Origin: an uncultured Spirochaeta sp.
Lineage (GTDB): Bacteria > Spirochaetota > Spirochaetia > DTKZ01
NCBI GenBank assembly: GCA_937140905.1
Contig: CAKZQO010000053.1
Location: 1 to 62,366, forward strand
Length of the DNA: 62,366 nt
Direction: 5' to 3'
Shown here one piece after another: positions 4,756 to 45,458 of this stretch. The notes under the pieces are model-generated. The model did no database searches. It was not told the origin of the DNA and was given only the letters and a program-made list of their open reading frames with translations. The position numbers and the translations under genes were made by a program. Position 1 is the stretch's first letter. Each line of letters opens with the position of its first letter.

Positions 4756-5187
4756 TTACTTTGGAAGAGCCAAGGTAATGGATACAGAGGAGACCAAAGG
4801 AGGGATTTGAGAGGGTTCGTGAGACAAGAAGAATAAGGGAGTAAACTCATGGATTCGCAGTAGGCCGTAGGAAGGAAGGGTCTCCATACTAGGCTCTGAG
4901 AAAGGTTTGAAACAGCTACGAAGTAAGCGGTTGCGGTAGTAGATTCCTACACTATCTATGGAAAAAGTCATCCGCATAGGATGTAACCAGTGGTGCTTCA
5001 TGGGGATGGTAGTGAAGGGGTTCAATGTGAACTGAGCCTGGTATTCTGATTCAAGATGAATCACTCTTGCTGGAGGGGGAGAATTAGGCTCCCTACCTTG
5101 CACAGAAACGTCTATTATGGGTATACTGTGTATGTTGCCCACAGTGAGTATAAAAATACTTAGAAGAAACAATATCCACTTTATCAT
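4756..5187 (-). CDS. Hypothetical secreted protein
   Basis: 143 aa with an N-terminal signal-like helix (MIKWILFLLSIFILTVG). No family recognised. Confidence 0.45.
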   Translation of the reverse strand: MIKWILFLLSIFILTVGNIHSIPIIDVSVQGREPNSPPPARVIHLESEYQAQFTLNPFTTIPMKHHWLHPMRMTFSIDSVGIYYRNRLLRSCFKPFSEPSMETLPSYGLLRIHEFTPLFFLSHEPSQIPPLVSSVSITLALPK

Positions 5188-5289
5188 AAATATTCTATAA
5201 ATATTTTCTCTCCAATGATTCTACTATGATCGTTCCATACCGTCAAGAATAAAAGTTGAGAAAAGTGGAGTGTTAAAAGAGAAAAAGAT

Positions 5290-5400
5290 AGGGGATTCTA
5301 GAGGGCGGGATCGGTTTATTGTCGGCTGTCCTCTGGCAGGAGGTAGGTGCAAGCTGATCAACCGACTGTCTTCAGTTGTCCCGAGTCTCTAGAATCCCCT
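5290..5400 (-). terminator. Long hairpin followed by a T-rich run, downstream of glnK (putative operon terminator)
   Basis: Perfect 14-bp inverted repeat aggggattctagag (5290-5303) / ctctagaatcccct (5387-5400). On the minus strand it is followed by atctttttctctttt. Begins 6 nt after the glnK stop. Confidence 0.45.
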
Positions 5401-5405
5401 TTTGC

Positions 5406-5747
5406 TCATCCAATAGCCGTCGACCCCGTTTCACCGGTCCGTATTCTGATGCATTCTTCTAGAGGAAGGATGAAAATCTTACCGTCCCCAATCTCCCCTG
5501 TCCGAGCACCGGCAATGATCCCCTCGATCGTGGGTTTCACATACCCGTCGTTTACAGCGATTTCCAACCGCACCTTTTTCAAAAGGTTCACCTCTTCGTC
5601 TACTCCACGGTAGGATTCATGGTACCCTTTTTGTTGCCCGCATCCGAGAGCATTGGTAACGGACATCTTGAAGATTTCTCTCTTGTACAACTCTTGTTTC
5701 ACGTCGTTGAGTTTGTACGGCTGTATATACGCAATGATCAGTTTCAT
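5406..5747 (-). CDS. glnK: Nitrogen regulatory protein P-II
   Basis: 113 aa with the P-II fold sequence ([13 protein letters not shown]...[20 protein letters not shown]). Immediately downstream of amt and has an AGGAGG Shine-Dalgarno (SD) site. Confidence 0.9.
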
Positions 5748-5773
5748 AGTTGCCTCCTAGTTTGATTCTTTTC

Positions 5774-7099
5774 CTACATGTTGGTGAATACTTGAAAACC
5801 TGAGTACGCTTCCATGCCATGCTCCCCAATGTCGAGACCCATCAACTCTTCTTCCCGACTCACCCGTATCCCAACGGTCTTTTTCAGCAGATACCAGCTT
5901 AAGAGAGCCACCAGGAACACAAAGGCGCCTACACTCGCTACCCCTAAAAGCTGTACCCCTAGCTGCTGAAAGCCGCCTCCTGAAAATAATCCATTGGACA
6001 ATGCGTCCGCATCGGTACCGATCTTGGCTGCAATTTCCTTGTCAGCGAATAGTCCCACGGCGAGGGTGCCGAAGACCCCATTCACTAAATGCACCGAAAG
6101 GGCTCCCACAGGATCGTCAATCCGTTTCCTATCGAAGAAGAGCACGGAAACGACCACTAGGATCCCCGCTATCAATCCTATGATGATCGAGGCTGGGATG
6201 GACACGAACGCGCAAGGTGCGGTAATAGCGACTAGCCCCGCTAAACACCCATTCAAGATCATGGAAAGATCCGGCTTTCCAAGCAAGAACCAAGCCGTAA
6301 TAGTGGCAGAAATGGAAGCTGCCGCAGCAGCCGCATTGGTGGTGACCGCAATGTGCGCGATAGCATCTGGATTCAACGCCATGGTAGAGCCAGGATTGAA
6401 CCCAAACCAACCGAACCATAGGACAAACACCCCTAGTGTGGCGATGGAAAGGTTATGCCCATAGATAGGCCGAGGGGAACCGTCGGGTTTGTATTTTCCT
6501 ATTCTTGGACCCAACAGCAGAATACCTGCCAGCGCGCTCCATCCGCCTACCGAATGTACCACCGTAGAACCGGCAAAATCGAACATCCCAAGTTCGGCTA
6601 GCCATCCCCCTCCCCAGATCCAATGCCCTCCAATGGGATAGATTACCATCGCGATTAGGACCGTAAAGAAGATGAAAGCCTTGAACTTGATCCGTTCGGC
6701 TACGGCCCCTGATACAATCGTGGCAGCGGTTCCGCAGAACACAAGCTGAAAGAAGAACTTGGCAGCCAAGGGTACCCCTGTCCAGCTCAAGGCGGTATAC
6801 GCACCTTTGTACGCATCTCCCGTAGCGGGACTATTGTCCGCGCCAGTCAGGGCGAACAACCCTTCCAAGCCCCAAAAAGGATTCCCGTTCCCGAACATCA
6901 AACCAAAGCCAATCACGTAGAAGGCAAGGGAAGAAACCCCGAACACGATGAAATTCTTTGCCAGGATATTCACCGTGTTCTTTACCCTGCAAAGCCCGGA
7001 TTCGACCATGGCGAATCCAAGATTCATGAAGAAAACGAGGAATCCGGCCACGAGAACCCATAGGGTATCCAGGGCTATTTTCAACGAACCAGCATCCAT
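5774..7099 (-). CDS. amtB: Ammonium transporter (Amt family)
   Basis: Amt signatures (DFAGSTVVHSVGGW, GFNPGS, HLVNGVFGTLAVGLF). The track ORF starts at 7156. I prefer the ATG at 7099 (MDAGSLKIALDTLWVL) because it is preceded by GGAGGAG, and the 7141-7155 segment looks like the promoter. Confidence 0.88.
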   Translation of the reverse strand: MDAGSLKIALDTLWVLVAGFLVFFMNLGFAMVESGLCRVKNTVNILAKNFIVFGVSSLAFYVIGFGLMFGNGNPFWGLEGLFALTGADNSPATGDAYKGAYTALSWTGVPLAAKFFFQLVFCGTAATIVSGAVAERIKFKAFIFFTVLIAMVIYPIGGHWIWGGGWLAELGMFDFAGSTVVHSVGGWSALAGILLLGPRIGKYKPDGSPRPIYGHNLSIATLGVFVLWFGWFGFNPGSTMALNPDAIAHIAVTTNAAAAAASISATITAWFLLGKPDLSMILNGCLAGLVAITAPCAFVSIPASIIIGLIAGILVVVSVLFFDRKRIDDPVGALSVHLVNGVFGTLAVGLFADKEIAAKIGTDADALSNGLFSGGGFQQLGVQLLGVASVGAFVFLVALLSWYLLKKTVGIRVSREEELMGLDIGEHGMEAYSGFQVFTNM

Positions 7100-42229: not shown

Positions 42230-42577
42230 ATGAAACGATGGATTTTAATGAGCCTATTGGTGTTCCTCTCCGTTTCCCTTGTCTTCGCTTCTGGGGCAAA
42301 GGAAAAGCAAGAGCAGAAAGTGGTAGTGTATTCCAGTGTGGATGAAGCGAACGCCAAGAAGATCCTCGATGCCTTCACAGCTGATACAGGGATAAAAGTA
42401 GCCTTTGTGCACCTTTCCTCTGGCCCTGCCATAGCGCGGATCAAGGCAGAGATTAACAATCCCCAAGCAGACGTATGGATGGGAGCGCCCAGTGAAAACC
42501 ATATCGTGGCAAAGGAAGAGGGGCTTACCATTCCCTATAAGGGAGGTGCTTTTGATTCTTTGGCTCCCCAGTTGTAA
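42230..42577 (+). pseudogene. 5' fragment of an Fe(III)/phosphonate-type ABC substrate-binding protein gene, truncated by the prophage
   Basis: 115 aa with a signal peptide and VVVYSSVDE...GIKV...ADVWMGAP, typical of FbpA/AfuA/PhnS-type binding proteins. Those proteins are normally about 330 aa. The ORF stops 10-15 nt before the phage-end-like sequence. Confidence 0.7.
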
Positions 42578-42586
42578 CGAAACGCA

Positions 42587-42630
42587 TGATTTGAGAAAAA
42601 TTTACACTTGAAATGAGAAAAAACCGTGTT
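42587..42630. repeat. Putative transposable-phage terminal sequence
   Basis: tgatttGAGAAAAAtttaCACTTGAAatGAGAAAAAACCGtg. It starts with TG, has a duplicated TGAGAAAAA (42592-600, 42614-622), and carries CACTTGAA..GAAAAAACCG. That last motif resembles the phage Mu L1 end as I remember it (CACTTGAAGTACGAAAAAAACCG). The exact terminus is not resolved. Confidence 0.4.
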
Positions 42631-42640
42631 TTTAAGGGTC

Positions 42641-43750
42641 TTAATGGGCAATTTCGTGCCTTTTTATCATTGCTTGGAGGCAGTGTAGCATCAATTTTTC
42701 CACTATTTTATGGCTTGCTGTATCGGCACAATGTCCAATCCACGAGCCAAAAGATTTAAGCAATTTCTCATCACTAATAGATCCATTTCTCCAACACTTA
42801 ACGCGTTTCTGCATTTTTCTTATATGTTGTTTTTTAATTAGTTTTTTACCTCCCCATACCCTATACCCAACGAACTCAATGCCATTTTTAACGGAGTCAA
42901 TTCTAGTTTTAGGATTAAGCCTAAGGGATAGTTTAGTAGTTAAAAACGTGTTTATATCACGCAACAGTCTTTTCAGTATCGTTTTGCTTGCATGTAGCAC
43001 AATAAAATCATCCATATACCTAAGATAGTATTTAACCCCTCTTACGTGTTTCATCCAATGGTCAAACTCGTGAAGATAAATGTTCGCAAACAGCTGACTC
43101 ATAAGGTTCCCGATAGGCAGGCCGGTTTCTGGCGTACTATTCAAAATCTCGTCTAGAAGCCACAGAATCCCATCGTCTTTTATATGGTTAGACAGTATAG
43201 ATCTAAGAATCACGCGATTTATCGAAGCAAAGTATTTAGAAATATCTGCTTTAATATAATAATGTACCCCTGGCTTTGAAAGAAAGAACGACAACCTCCT
43301 TGCAGCTTTATGAGTGCCTTTGCCTTTTCTACAAGCATAACTATCATAGATCACCCGTTTATCAAATAAAGGCTCAATCACATTGTTAAGAGCGTGTTGT
43401 ACCACTCTATCCCGGAAAGGAAGAGCCACTATTTGGCGCTTTTTCGGTTCATAGACAATGAAAGGACGGTAATTTCCCACTTTGTACGTTCTCCAAATCA
43501 ATTCGTTCTGGAGCTCAATAAGGTTTTCTTCTAGTGCGTATGAAAACGATAACACTTCTTTTCGATAACGTTTTTGTTTTCTTGCTTTTAGATAGGCGTC
43601 ATAGAGGTTTTGATAATCGTACACTTTTTCGAACACTCTAAACCTCGTTATCCAATAAAAATACGCCCCACCCGCAGGTAGGGCGCTAGCATAGTTTTGC
43701 CTTCCAGTCCTTTTGACTGGATCGGCAGGGAGCGTGATCTGACAATCCAT
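42641..43750 (-). CDS. DGR reverse transcriptase
   Basis: 369-aa ORF. RT motifs PKKRQIVALPFRDRVVQHAL, IGNLMSQLFANIYL (SQ signature) and RYMDDFIV. No En/maturase extension. The true start may be the GTG at ~43636 (RVFEKVYDYQNLYDAYLKARK), leaving a ~165-nt spacer after TR. Confidence 0.93.
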   Translation of the reverse strand: MDCQITLPADPVKRTGRQNYASALPAGGAYFYWITRFRVFEKVYDYQNLYDAYLKARKQKRYRKEVLSFSYALEENLIELQNELIWRTYKVGNYRPFIVYEPKKRQIVALPFRDRVVQHALNNVIEPLFDKRVIYDSYACRKGKGTHKAARRLSFFLSKPGVHYYIKADISKYFASINRVILRSILSNHIKDDGILWLLDEILNSTPETGLPIGNLMSQLFANIYLHEFDHWMKHVRGVKYYLRYMDDFIVLHASKTILKRLLRDINTFLTTKLSLRLNPKTRIDSVKNGIEFVGYRVWGGKKLIKKQHIRKMQKRVKCWRNGSISDEKLLKSFGSWIGHCADTASHKIVEKLMLHCLQAMIKRHEIAH

Positions 43751-43801
43751 CTGTCACTGCGATCGGCGCCGTGACGCCGAATCGTCGAGTCATGTTGATT
43801 C

Positions 43802-43910
43802 TCACAGGCAAGACGCACACCAATGTTCGTGCTCACATTCCACGGCCAGTTGTTCACGTTCACAGCCCGAGGCCCCGCAAACACGCCGTTGTCCCAGTTC
43901 GCGCCTACTA
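43802..43910 (-). repeat. DGR template repeat (TR), non-coding
   Basis: 109 nt, 95/109 identical to VR at a 473-nt offset. Begins 4 nt after the avd stop. Rich in AAC codons when read in the VR frame (track ORF 43648-43917 is the resulting spurious translation). Confidence 0.92.
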
Positions 43911-43913
43911 ACA

Positions 43914-44243
43914 TCACGCCCCCTTAAGGAGACCGCCTACAATGCGGCCTATCTCAGCCACCATCTTACTAGCTGTCTCATAGCTATGGTGACTGAGGTA
44001 TTTCCTACGATGGCTATGTCGTATCAACCACCGAAGGATATCGAGCTGGTTGTCGATCTCATACAGTCCTGATAGTTTCTGTTTGGATTTGTTTGTCCGG
44101 ATAGTCTTAAGCAGGATATCATAGCAAGTGTTTTTAATCTGGCTACACAGGGCAAACTTTTCATGTTTTGGGAATCTGTCCACGATAGGGAAAAACCATT
44201 CCACAAAATCTTCAAGTTTCTGCCACAAAATAAACCCTTCCAA
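43914..44243 (-). CDS. avd: DGR accessory variability determinant (Avd, four-helix-bundle protein)
   Basis: 109 aa with a TTG start. Basic helical protein of the family annotated as 23S rRNA intervening-sequence protein (FPKHEKFALCSQI...). Positioned between the target gene and TR. Confidence 0.85.
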   Translation of the reverse strand: MEGFILWQKLEDFVEWFFPIVDRFPKHEKFALCSQIKNTCYDILLKTIRTNKSKQKLSGLYEIDNQLDILRWLIRHSHRRKYLSHHSYETASKMVAEIGRIVGGLLKGA

Positions 44244-44264
44244 TCCAGACCCCCAGATACCAGA

Positions 44265-45458
44265 TTACAGACTGTCACAGGCAAGACGCACACCAACGTA
44301 CGCGCCCACATCCCACGGCCAGCTGCCCACGCTCACAGCCCGAGGCCCCGCAAACACGCCGTCGCCCCAGCCCGCGCCCACTAGATACGCTACGAGGCCT
44401 GTGTTATTTGGCAGATACGCCTGCCCCTTACCGGAACCCAGCACGTTTTGCCACGCCCACGACGTGGAATCATGCCGGTTGGACAGTTCATCTAACCATT
44501 CCCAGAGATTCCCTACTGCATCCACAATGTTATATGCGCTAATGGCCGCCGGCTTTACGCCCGTACTAGGATCATATGCGCCTGTGGAGGGATTTACTCG
44601 GCATCCAGTACGGGTGCGGCCCGTGTTGCTTGTTTTTGTCCACCCGTAGGTGTCTGCATTATCAAGCCCCTGAGGATTCCCATAGGCGGCCCTGATCCAC
44701 TCCCCATACGTTAGGAGTCGCTTCCCTATACGACTGGCCAATTCATTGAAGGTATACCAGTTCAGCCCCTCGGTGCCTGACACCGGGATTTGGCCATATC
44801 GTGACTGTAGGCGCCCAGAAGCGATATGGAGGCCGTTCGTGCCGCTCTCGAATGTGATGGTCTCTGCGGCACTGGAAAGATAGATATCTACCCAGATATG
44901 GCCGATTTTTACCATACCTTCAGGTGAGCATATAGGGCGGTTTTTCAAGTCCCAGACGCTGTTGGGAACAATCCCTACAGTTACATTATCTCTCCAGTTA
45001 GGGGTGCCGTTGCCGAATTTTACACCGCTGCCATCTATAGGCACCCAGAGGCCATCACTGGAAACAATCCTGATATGCCCGTAGTGGAACCCGCCGATTT
45101 TGCGGGAGGATGTTTCCGTATACCCAGCAGGGTAAGTAGAGTTAAGGCTGATCTTAAACACTCCATCTCCGCCGTTATCACAGAGATAGACGTAATAATC
45201 TTTTCCTACCTCAAACGAAGAACCCTGATCCAGATCTAGGGCAGATAATTCAATGTCGTTCCGTACGGTGTAGATCTTCCATGTTTGGTTTAGTAGGGAT
45301 ATAACCGTATCTTTTTTTACGATTATTTTGTTCTCCGTATAGGAGAAGGGGTTCTTTTTCTCCAGGTAGGCTGGTCCGGGGGATTTTACATCATGGAACA
45401 ATGCAAGCCATTCTACAGATGCGTCGTCCACATAGTCTTTCACTCGGTATAAAGACAT
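44265..45458 (-). CDS. DGR target: phage tail-fibre / receptor-binding protein with a C-terminal FGE-sulfatase / C-type-lectin-fold domain
   Basis: 397 aa. Last structural gene of the tail module. The C-terminal YGEWIRAAYG...VGNLWEWL...VR pattern resembles Mtd/TvpA-like DGR targets. Confidence 0.88.
   Translation of the reverse strand: MSLYRVKDYVDDASVEWLALFHDVKSPGPAYLEKKNPFSYTENKIIVKKDTVISLLNQTWKIYTVRNDIELSALDLDQGSSFEVGKDYYVYLCDNGGDGVFKISLNSTYPAGYTETSSRKIGGFHYGHIRIVSSDGLWVPIDGSGVKFGNGTPNWRDNVTVGIVPNSVWDLKNRPICSPEGMVKIGHIWVDIYLSSAAETITFESGTNGLHIASGRLQSRYGQIPVSGTEGLNWYTFNELASRIGKRLLTYGEWIRAAYGNPQGLDNADTYGWTKTSNTGRTRTGCRVNPSTGAYDPSTGVKPAAISAYNIVDAVGNLWEWLDELSNRHDSTSWAWQNVLGSGKGQAYLPNNTGLVAYLVGAGWGDGVFAGPRAVSVGSWPWDVGAYVGVRLACDSL
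44275..44383 (-). repeat. DGR variable repeat (VR), within the 3' end of the target gene
   Basis: Encodes LVGAGWGDGVFAGPRAVSVGSWPWDVGAYVGVRLAC. It has 14 substitutions relative to TR, all at template A. Confidence 0.92.

Follow-up and report, generated by a model that had tools for sequence, protein, structure and literature searches.

Diversity-generating retroelements (DGRs) have been catalogued by the tens of thousands. The prototype is the element of Bordetella phage BPP-1, in which the genes and the template repeat (TR) follow the order mtd-avd-TR-brt, and Mtd-type targets form a recognised category of DGRs (PMC5758913). Here we describe an element of this kind in a contig of 62,366 nucleotides from an uncultured Spirochaeta sp. 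(CAKZQO010000053.1), which is called the window below. The best explanation of the locus, and in our judgement a very probable one, is that it is a BPP-1-type DGR, situated where a prophage of an uncultured spirochaete ends and working by the mechanism proposed below.

When compared with BPP-1, the window element has the same gene order and strand and three homologous proteins. The variable repeat (VR) lies at the C-terminus of a C-type-lectin protein of the Mtd type ending in ...C-D-x-L, and the template is rich in AAY codons. Both elements have the cDNA start context ..CUG|UG (predicted for the window), a stem-loop after TR capped by UACG or CACG, a UCAG, a duplex between avd and the spacer, and a small stem-loop with adenosines (bioRxiv 10.1101/2023.10.23.563531). 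In both, the primer RNA is more complementary to the VR site for initiation of mutagenic homing (IMH) than to its TR counterpart, IMH* (PMC5703328). On the other hand, the proteins are only distantly similar, and TR has 109-114 nt with 21 adenines here compared with 134 nt and 23 adenines in BPP-1. After VR, BPP-1 has a GC-rich GAAA hairpin where the window element has an array of TCTG motifs, and the window element carries a terminator-like hairpin and U-run ahead of the RT (reverse transcriptase) gene. The window phage, whose host is a spirochaete, has a long tape-measure tail and may be Mu-like, whereas BPP-1 is a short-tailed Rauchvirus integrated at a tRNA.

Closer elements exist in prophages and IMG/VR contigs of uncultured spirochaetes, for example L002 (from a Gracilinema caldarium metagenome-assembled genome, MAG), L091 (IMGVR_UViG_3300033998_000459) and L162 (Logan SRR26929795 contig). 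Their targets are 78-84% identical to that of the window, their repeats are spaced by 473-482 nt, and they have the same spacer RNA, TCTG array and IMH/IMH* pair (TGACAGTC / TGAGAATC). The closest is L162, whose cassette has about 70% DNA identity. They differ from the window in several TR codons (AGC here, AAC there), and the VRs are unrelated at the A sites. The template itself evolves, as the window TR also has TTT-GCG-GGG where close relatives have other codons, and the diversifiable positions therefore differ between lineages. Judging from its description, the TvpA DGR of Treponema denticola resembles the window element in its spirochaete host and in a C-type-lectin/FGE-type protein with a C-terminal VR (PMC5758913), but is set apart as a chromosomal DGR whose target is a cellular surface lipoprotein and not a homologue of phage Mtd. 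In deposited phage genomes the closest RTs are those of Bacillus phage BalMu-1 and Vibrio phage VP585, with 44-45% identity, and no RT of an isolated phage matched at 60% identity or more. These two phages have other hosts; the RT gene of BalMu-1 likewise lies near the right end of the genome.

The repeat pair and the proteins around it

TR (43802-43910) and VR (44275-44383) lie on the minus strand and can be aligned at an offset of 473 with no gaps. Over the 109 nt there are 95 matches and 14 mismatches, and on the coding strand every mismatch falls on a template adenine (13 A>G and one A>T). Thus 14 of the 21 TR adenines are changed, while none of the 88 non-A positions differs. If the mismatches were placed randomly over the 109 positions, the probability of finding all 14 on the 21 adenines is 7.3e-13. 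The original prediction had given the same figures, and our ungapped comparison found all of them correct; the pairwise alignment that it proposed as a check was computed and contains no non-A mismatch in the 109 nt. A repeat search detected the pair independently as 43797-43910 and 44270-44383 (114 nt, 86% identity), and no third copy was found within the window.

From the codon table, VR has G, D, S, G, S, D and Y in place of the seven AAY (Asn) codons of TR; apart from these there are four further replacements, D>G, S>G, T>A and I>V, and a silent GTA>GTG, in agreement with the earlier codon account. Altogether 11 residues are recoded, all seven Asn codons among them. The adenines occupy codon position 1 or 2 in 19 of 21 cases. 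All TR codons containing A are of the NNY, GTA or NCG type, so that substitution of an A cannot produce a stop codon, and about 4e10 protein variants can be encoded. The assignment of TR and VR, the AAY-codon design and past mutagenic retrohoming, as originally proposed, all hold, supported by the full protein and RNA machinery that surrounds the repeats.

The genes are ordered target-avd-TR-RT, all on the minus strand. The target gene (44265-45458) encodes an Mtd-like receptor-binding tail protein of 397 aa, of which VR forms the last ~37 codons. Its Pfam matches are mtd_2nd, the second domain of Mtd (E=1e-25), and FGE-sulfatase, from the class with a C-type lectin fold (E=5e-7). The only solved relatives are the BPP-1 Mtd proteins, 1yu4 being the best PDB sequence match (E=6e-18), and the alignment with Mtd extends to the C-terminus (...CDSL / ...CDHL). 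The homologues comprise 947 Mtd-like proteins. Judged by this homology, what has been called 'SUMF1/FGE-like' is a receptor-binding phage protein of hypervariable type, in which the VR changes are predicted to recode the ligand-binding surface of the C-type lectin. The likely role of the DGR is to switch or broaden the receptor specificity of the phage.

The accessory variability determinant, avd (43914-44243, minus strand), starts with TTG and encodes 109 aa. It scores 115.5 bits against NCBIfam NF033474 (DivGenRetAVD), for which the equivalog cut-off is 80, and matches Pfam bAvd with E=2e-31; its PDB matches, 4dwl and 8ub7_B, are BPP-1 Avd. An exact look-up of the protein returned no record. 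The gene calls of JGI on an identical contig omit the TTG-start avd and place an open reading frame (ORF) over TR instead. In the public calls on identical contigs this ORF (43648-43917, minus strand) has 88-89 aa and consists of TR in the VR frame followed by the spacer. The 89-aa ORF is spurious, and avd is a real gene missed by one public call.

The RT gene (42641-43636, minus strand) starts with GTG, the start also called by JGI, and encodes a DGR reverse transcriptase of 331 aa that matches Pfam RVT_1. Its best PDB relative is the BPP-1 enzyme bRT (8ub7_A, E=9e-55), followed by the next RT class at 6e-20. Both LPIGNLMSQ, which fits the DGR signature [I/V/L]GxxxSQ, and YMDD are present. 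Kept as well are the equivalents of R74 and I181, which promote adenine mutagenesis in bRT (PMC7826257). Scores against the group II intron, retron and Drt RT models of NCBIfam are all far below the cut-offs.

RNA structure and a proposed mode of priming and homing

BPP-1 depends on RNA to either side of TR, with an Avd-binding stem-loop, the priming adenosine Sp A56 in UCAG, and the avd:spacer duplex (PMC6182149; bioRxiv 10.1101/2023.10.23.563531). For the corresponding region of the window, covariation was evaluated on an alignment of 24 sequences (the window and 23 relatives) covering the final 30 nt of avd, TR and 165 nt of spacer, and pairs were counted for the minimum free energy (MFE) structure predicted for the window RNA. 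In this structure 84% of the cells are paired, compared with 37-46% in controls with slid partners. Compensatory changes occur at 29 of the 39 pairs, and none of 500 shuffles reaches the observed values. All helices are formed in the window copy, and they correspond one-to-one with BPP-1 elements. Rfam and tRNA scans of the window returned no matches.

Helix 1 of the covariation analysis joins GGGGGCGUGAU (43913-43923, minus strand), which includes the avd stop codon, to AUCACGCUCCC in the spacer (43728-43738, minus strand), as in the MFE fold. It would be the equivalent of the 'cPRT Stop' duplex that ends cDNA synthesis in BPP-1 (bioRxiv 10.1101/2023.10.23.563531). In BPP-1 the duplex stops the RT together with a small stem-loop and adenosines (bioRxiv 10.1101/2023.10.23.563531; PMC6182149). 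The probable equivalent of these is helix 4 (43687-43727, minus strand), a UGCC...GGCA stem-loop followed by AAAC, with unpaired adenosines that are candidates for A-minor motifs; its 4 pairs all show compensatory change, and in the relatives it reads UGCC-GUAA-GGCA followed by AAA. Helix 2 (43760-43784, minus strand) lies 13 nt after TR. It is a stem-loop of 10 bp with a bulged U, compensatory at 8 of 10 pairs, and its tetraloop is CACG in the window and UACG in most relatives. We regard it as the putative counterpart of the Avd-binding stem-loop of BPP-1, which reads GCCAACGC-UACG-GCUUGGC in the BPP-1 sequence, and by this analogy it would bind Avd.

Helix 3 (43739-43755, minus strand) is a small GACA...UGUC hairpin followed by UCAG, which is invariant in all the sequences (alignment positions T199 C200 A201 G202). 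BPP-1 has GGUCAGCC at its priming site, with GGUCAG in common. Between these elements and the ribosome-binding site of the RT gene there is a GC-rich hairpin of 10 bp (7 GC) followed by the U-rich run AUUUUUAUU (43653-43686, minus strand; helices 5 and 6), which was also picked up by a terminator scan. Compensatory change is seen at each of the 10 pairs, and most relatives retain the U-run. This hairpin may serve as a terminator, in which case it could delimit the DGR RNA at its 3' end and restrict RT expression, as the stem-loop by which the spacer binds RT, or as both.

The 3' end of both repeats is an identical stretch of 22 nt, TTGGTGTGCGTCTTGCCTGTGA, containing a single A. The original prediction took this stretch as the candidate IMH and described the copies as diverging directly beyond it. 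The identical, A-poor 22 nt (44275-44296 in VR) indeed corresponds to the GC-rich first part of the IMH as defined in PMC5758913, but what had been called divergence is the part that discriminates VR from TR, and the IMH region as a whole covers 44269-44296 on the minus strand. The copies do differ there, yet the similarity continues: on the coding strand the next 5 nt are GAATC in TR and CAGTC in VR, that is, one more A>G and one non-A difference (G in TR, C in VR). As the latter is conserved in close relatives, we interpret it as a fixed distinction between IMH* and IMH rather than a product of mutagenesis.

The discriminating ends are TGACAGTCT in VR (44277-44269) and TGAGAATCA in TR (43804-43796). 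The primer segment of the spacer, GGAUUGUCA (43748-43740, minus strand), pairs contiguously with the VR end at 9 of 9 positions, two of them G:U, whereas with the TR end only 3 contiguous pairs form because of an internal G-G mismatch. The contiguous pairing of the BPP-1 primer is 9 with VR and 2 with TR. In the 24 aligned sequences it is longer with VR than with TR in 20, equal in three, and reversed in L096 only. Naorem et al. (PMC5703328) proposed for BPP-1 that VR is chosen over TR through pairing between the IMH and the primer RNA, which is attached to the cDNA. We had considered the complementarity between spacer and IMH as a new observation, but dropped this because it is already discussed for BPP-1 in the same paper.

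Priming in BPP-1 occurs at Sp A56, which is followed by G57 (PMC6182149, PMC5703328), and A 43740 is the candidate counterpart in the window. By analogy to G117/U118 of the BPP-1 TR (PMC6182149), the first templated nucleotide is predicted to be G 43805, followed by IMH* UGAGAAUCA (43796-43805, minus strand). The cDNA would then start at the G of CCTG|TGA, inside the identical 22 nt.

From these correspondences a mechanism can be proposed. The avd, TR and spacer, with or without the RT gene, would be transcribed together. In this RNA, the 3' end of avd would pair with the spacer and the stem-loop after TR would form, both structures being shown by covariation, and a pentamer of Avd would bind as it does in BPP-1. 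The spacer segment GGAUUGUCA would pair with the 3' end of TR, and A 43740 would prime synthesis from G 43805, as expected from the homology with Sp A56 and TR G117. The RT would copy TR faithfully except for misincorporation at adenines, and would stop at the avd:spacer duplex. Finally, following the published model for BPP-1, the RNA-linked cDNA would replace the VR at the 3' end of the Mtd-like gene, guided by the pairing of the primer RNA with the VR-specific IMH. It is the outcome of this scheme that is seen directly, in a VR that matches TR except at 14 of the 21 adenines.

Relatives, activity and rival explanations

For comparison, genomes and viral contigs supplied 160 related loci. 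Across 110 distinct pairs of TR and VR, 1344 differences lie at A and 45 elsewhere. The original prediction had suggested comparing the VRs of related strains. Among the related elements, L082, L084 and L085 have identical TRs; between their VRs there are differences at 10-16 of 112 positions, confined to A sites, while the avd intervals differ at 1-5 of 370. For example, L082 and L085 differ at 16 of 112 VR positions, but at only 1 of 370 in the avd interval. Since relatives with identical TRs have VRs that differ only at A sites, the family diversifies in nature. Within protein clusters of at least 90% identity, the variation is found mainly in the last ~35 residues. The proportion of template adenines substituted ranges from 21% to 74% in the family, compared with 14 of 21 in the window.

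The window element itself is found in two more assemblies, JGI 3300010288 (L001) and JGI 3300025104 (L164), which are 100% identical to it over 9-11 kb, VR included. The sample of the first also contains a different Mtd-type phage, L110 (IMGVR_UViG_3300010288_000017), whose target is 65% identical. Another side observation concerns L003, in the Gracilinema caldarium MAG but on a different contig from L002, where a second Mtd-like gene (5001-6260) has a VR-like end and a TCTG array and is followed by unrelated genes without avd, TR or RT. The VR-like end looks drifted and not recently templated, and from its sequence L003 appears to be a decayed or truncated copy.

Several observations weigh against an active BPP-1-type DGR in the window. 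No VR polymorphism exists among the three assemblies, although the flanks are equally invariant. A scan for VR variants (TR with A->N) gave 0 matches in viral contigs, in a collection evidently without this element, and metagenome-contig scans with a 72-nt pattern and a 27-nt A-free core gave 0 VR variants, again in collections evidently without it. Downstream of VR there is no hairpin of 5 bp or more within ~75 nt. The AlphaFold2 model of the target, made from a 22-sequence alignment, is too poor to confirm the fold (mean pLDDT 46.7, below 50 in the C-terminal domain), and for this reason the fold assignment rests on sequence homology. Moreover, the A>G bias of 13/14 exceeds the family mean of 60% of the 1344 differences (P=0.009). 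This bias was examined as a sign of some other mechanism and ruled out as such by that 60% average itself, by two other loci with 100% A>G (11/11 and 6/6), and by a survey of 155 DGRs in which A is most often replaced by G, in proportions that vary widely from VR to VR (PMC3521204). A further reason is that natural VRs have passed through selection, unlike the in vitro spectrum of BPP-1, which on the sense strand is T > G > C (PMC7826257).

One rival explanation is a fossil DGR: homing took place in the past, but the copy is now inactive, and its VR has become fixed as an allele of a prophage that is domesticated or defective. The identical VR in three assemblies from at least two samples, the lack of VR variants in the public collections scanned and the missing hairpin beside VR would all fit, and L003, which keeps the Mtd gene and the TCTG array while avd, TR and RT are lost, indicates that decay does occur in the family. 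However, all parts of the window element are intact, including a full-length RT with its catalytic and fidelity residues, Avd and all RNA helices, and 0/88 non-A differences means that no drift has occurred since the last homing event. The invariance of VR also says little about rates, because three assemblies that are identical in their 9-11 kb flanks represent essentially one clone. We therefore consider a fossil unlikely, with a small chance of being correct. From the intact parts, the absence of non-A drift and the 14 of 21 substituted adenines, we infer that the window copy of this BPP-1-type DGR is probably still active. Of the original wording, 'past, and possibly ongoing' retrohoming, the past is established by the A-only mismatches, while diversification still in progress is seen only in related elements, the window VR being invariant.

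Far less probable are two explanations that dispense with homing altogether. The 3' end of the tail-fibre gene could have been duplicated and have diverged by chance or by strand-biased A>G change without reverse transcription, and adenine deamination would indeed give the 13 A>G among 14 changes. But the changes fall on the adenines of one strand and in one copy only (P=7e-13), the unchanged copy is non-coding and lies between avd and RT, one change is A>T, A>C and A>T together make up about 40% of the changed sites in the relatives, and the cassette and its RNA are conserved; this explanation is effectively refuted, and we give it next to no weight. Since the window is a metagenome-derived contig, one could also suspect an assembly or binning artefact in which two alleles were collapsed or chimerically joined so as to mimic TR and VR. 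The same 9-11 kb, with the repeats 473 nt apart, is nevertheless 100% identical in two contigs from two JGI samples, and over 100 related loci are built in the same way. The sequence is thus identical in three independent assemblies and is therefore not an assembly artefact, for which we see hardly any chance at all.

Prophage context and the sequence after VR

From 45.5 kb to the end of the window, the genes are those of a phage, with head and tail functions. On the minus strand they include an NlpC/P60 protein, the tape measure, a tail-completion protein, the major head protein, a protease, a portal fused to a minor-head domain, and the terminase. On the other side, the probable prophage end (TGTAACGAAACG... 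/ TGTAACGAAACGCATGATTTGAGAAAAA...) lies at 42573-42640, 68 nt beyond the RT stop codon, with a shift in GC content. It adjoins a substrate-binding-protein gene truncated to 115 codons (42230-42577). A sigma-54 regulator adjacent to it shares 90% identity with one of a 'Spirochaetes bacterium' MAG, and the neighbouring chromosomal genes are those of an uncultured spirochaete. Metagenome contig L001, identical to the window, stops exactly at 42573. Together with the portal fusion and the best RT match to BalMu-1, this suggests that the phage is Mu-like and transposable; the other prophage end is outside the window.

The missing hairpin after VR is not exceptional. Such a hairpin is present in 34% of DGRs (PMC5758913), and in BPP-1 it boosts homing but is not strictly required (PMC12875486). 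The DNA downstream of the window VR folds no better than shuffled sequences (z=+1.2), and the hairpin was either lost or never present in the clade of the window. Among the distant relatives, L008, L014, L016, L018, L021, L023, L024, L089, L092 and L094 have a GC-rich hairpin of 5-8 bp directly after CCTGTGAC, with the target stop codon inside the loop (GTA, GTAA, TTTA or TCTA).

In the place of the hairpin, the window has four TCTG motifs spaced by 7, 7 and 8 nt (44246-44271, minus strand), which extend across the stop codon of the target and finish 2 nt short of the avd start. The pattern TCTGN{3,4}TCTGN{3,4}TCTG has this single match in the window, whereas 0.03 are expected by chance. Of 164 fetched loci, 42 have an array at exactly this position, and the pattern does not recur outside it in those loci. 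In the sequence after 106 VRs, no 4-mer is enriched more strongly than TCTG (8-fold), whose copies are spaced by 7 or 8 nt. Arrays of 3-5 copies on the coding strand, directly after the IMH and before avd, are conserved in Mtd-type DGRs of spirochaetes, Nitrospirota and others (L002, L005, L006, L030, L082-L096 and L162 among them), and only 0-2 copies are present in BPP-1 and the prophages of Lachnospiraceae, the lineages with the GAAA-loop hairpin. Within a limited literature search, no description of the array was found in DGR papers. It is conceivable, though on balance doubtful, that the array is an undescribed cis-element of DGR homing or regulation that substitutes for the GC-rich hairpin of BPP-1. 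One possibility is a docking site, as single-stranded DNA or RNA, for the pentameric Avd or for the particle of RT, RNA and cDNA; alternatively, it could act on the lagging-strand template as a signal for replication or priming.

The window element is a genuine and very clean member of the BPP-1 class, and this core finding leaves existing knowledge unchanged. It is a further DGR of the Mtd type, from the prophages that uncultured spirochaetes carry. The comparison of the 24 sequences supports the published idea of pairing between primer RNA and IMH, which would explain why homing proceeds from TR to VR. The only lead with some novelty is the TCTG array beside the IMH, a concrete and testable candidate for a part in cDNA integration.

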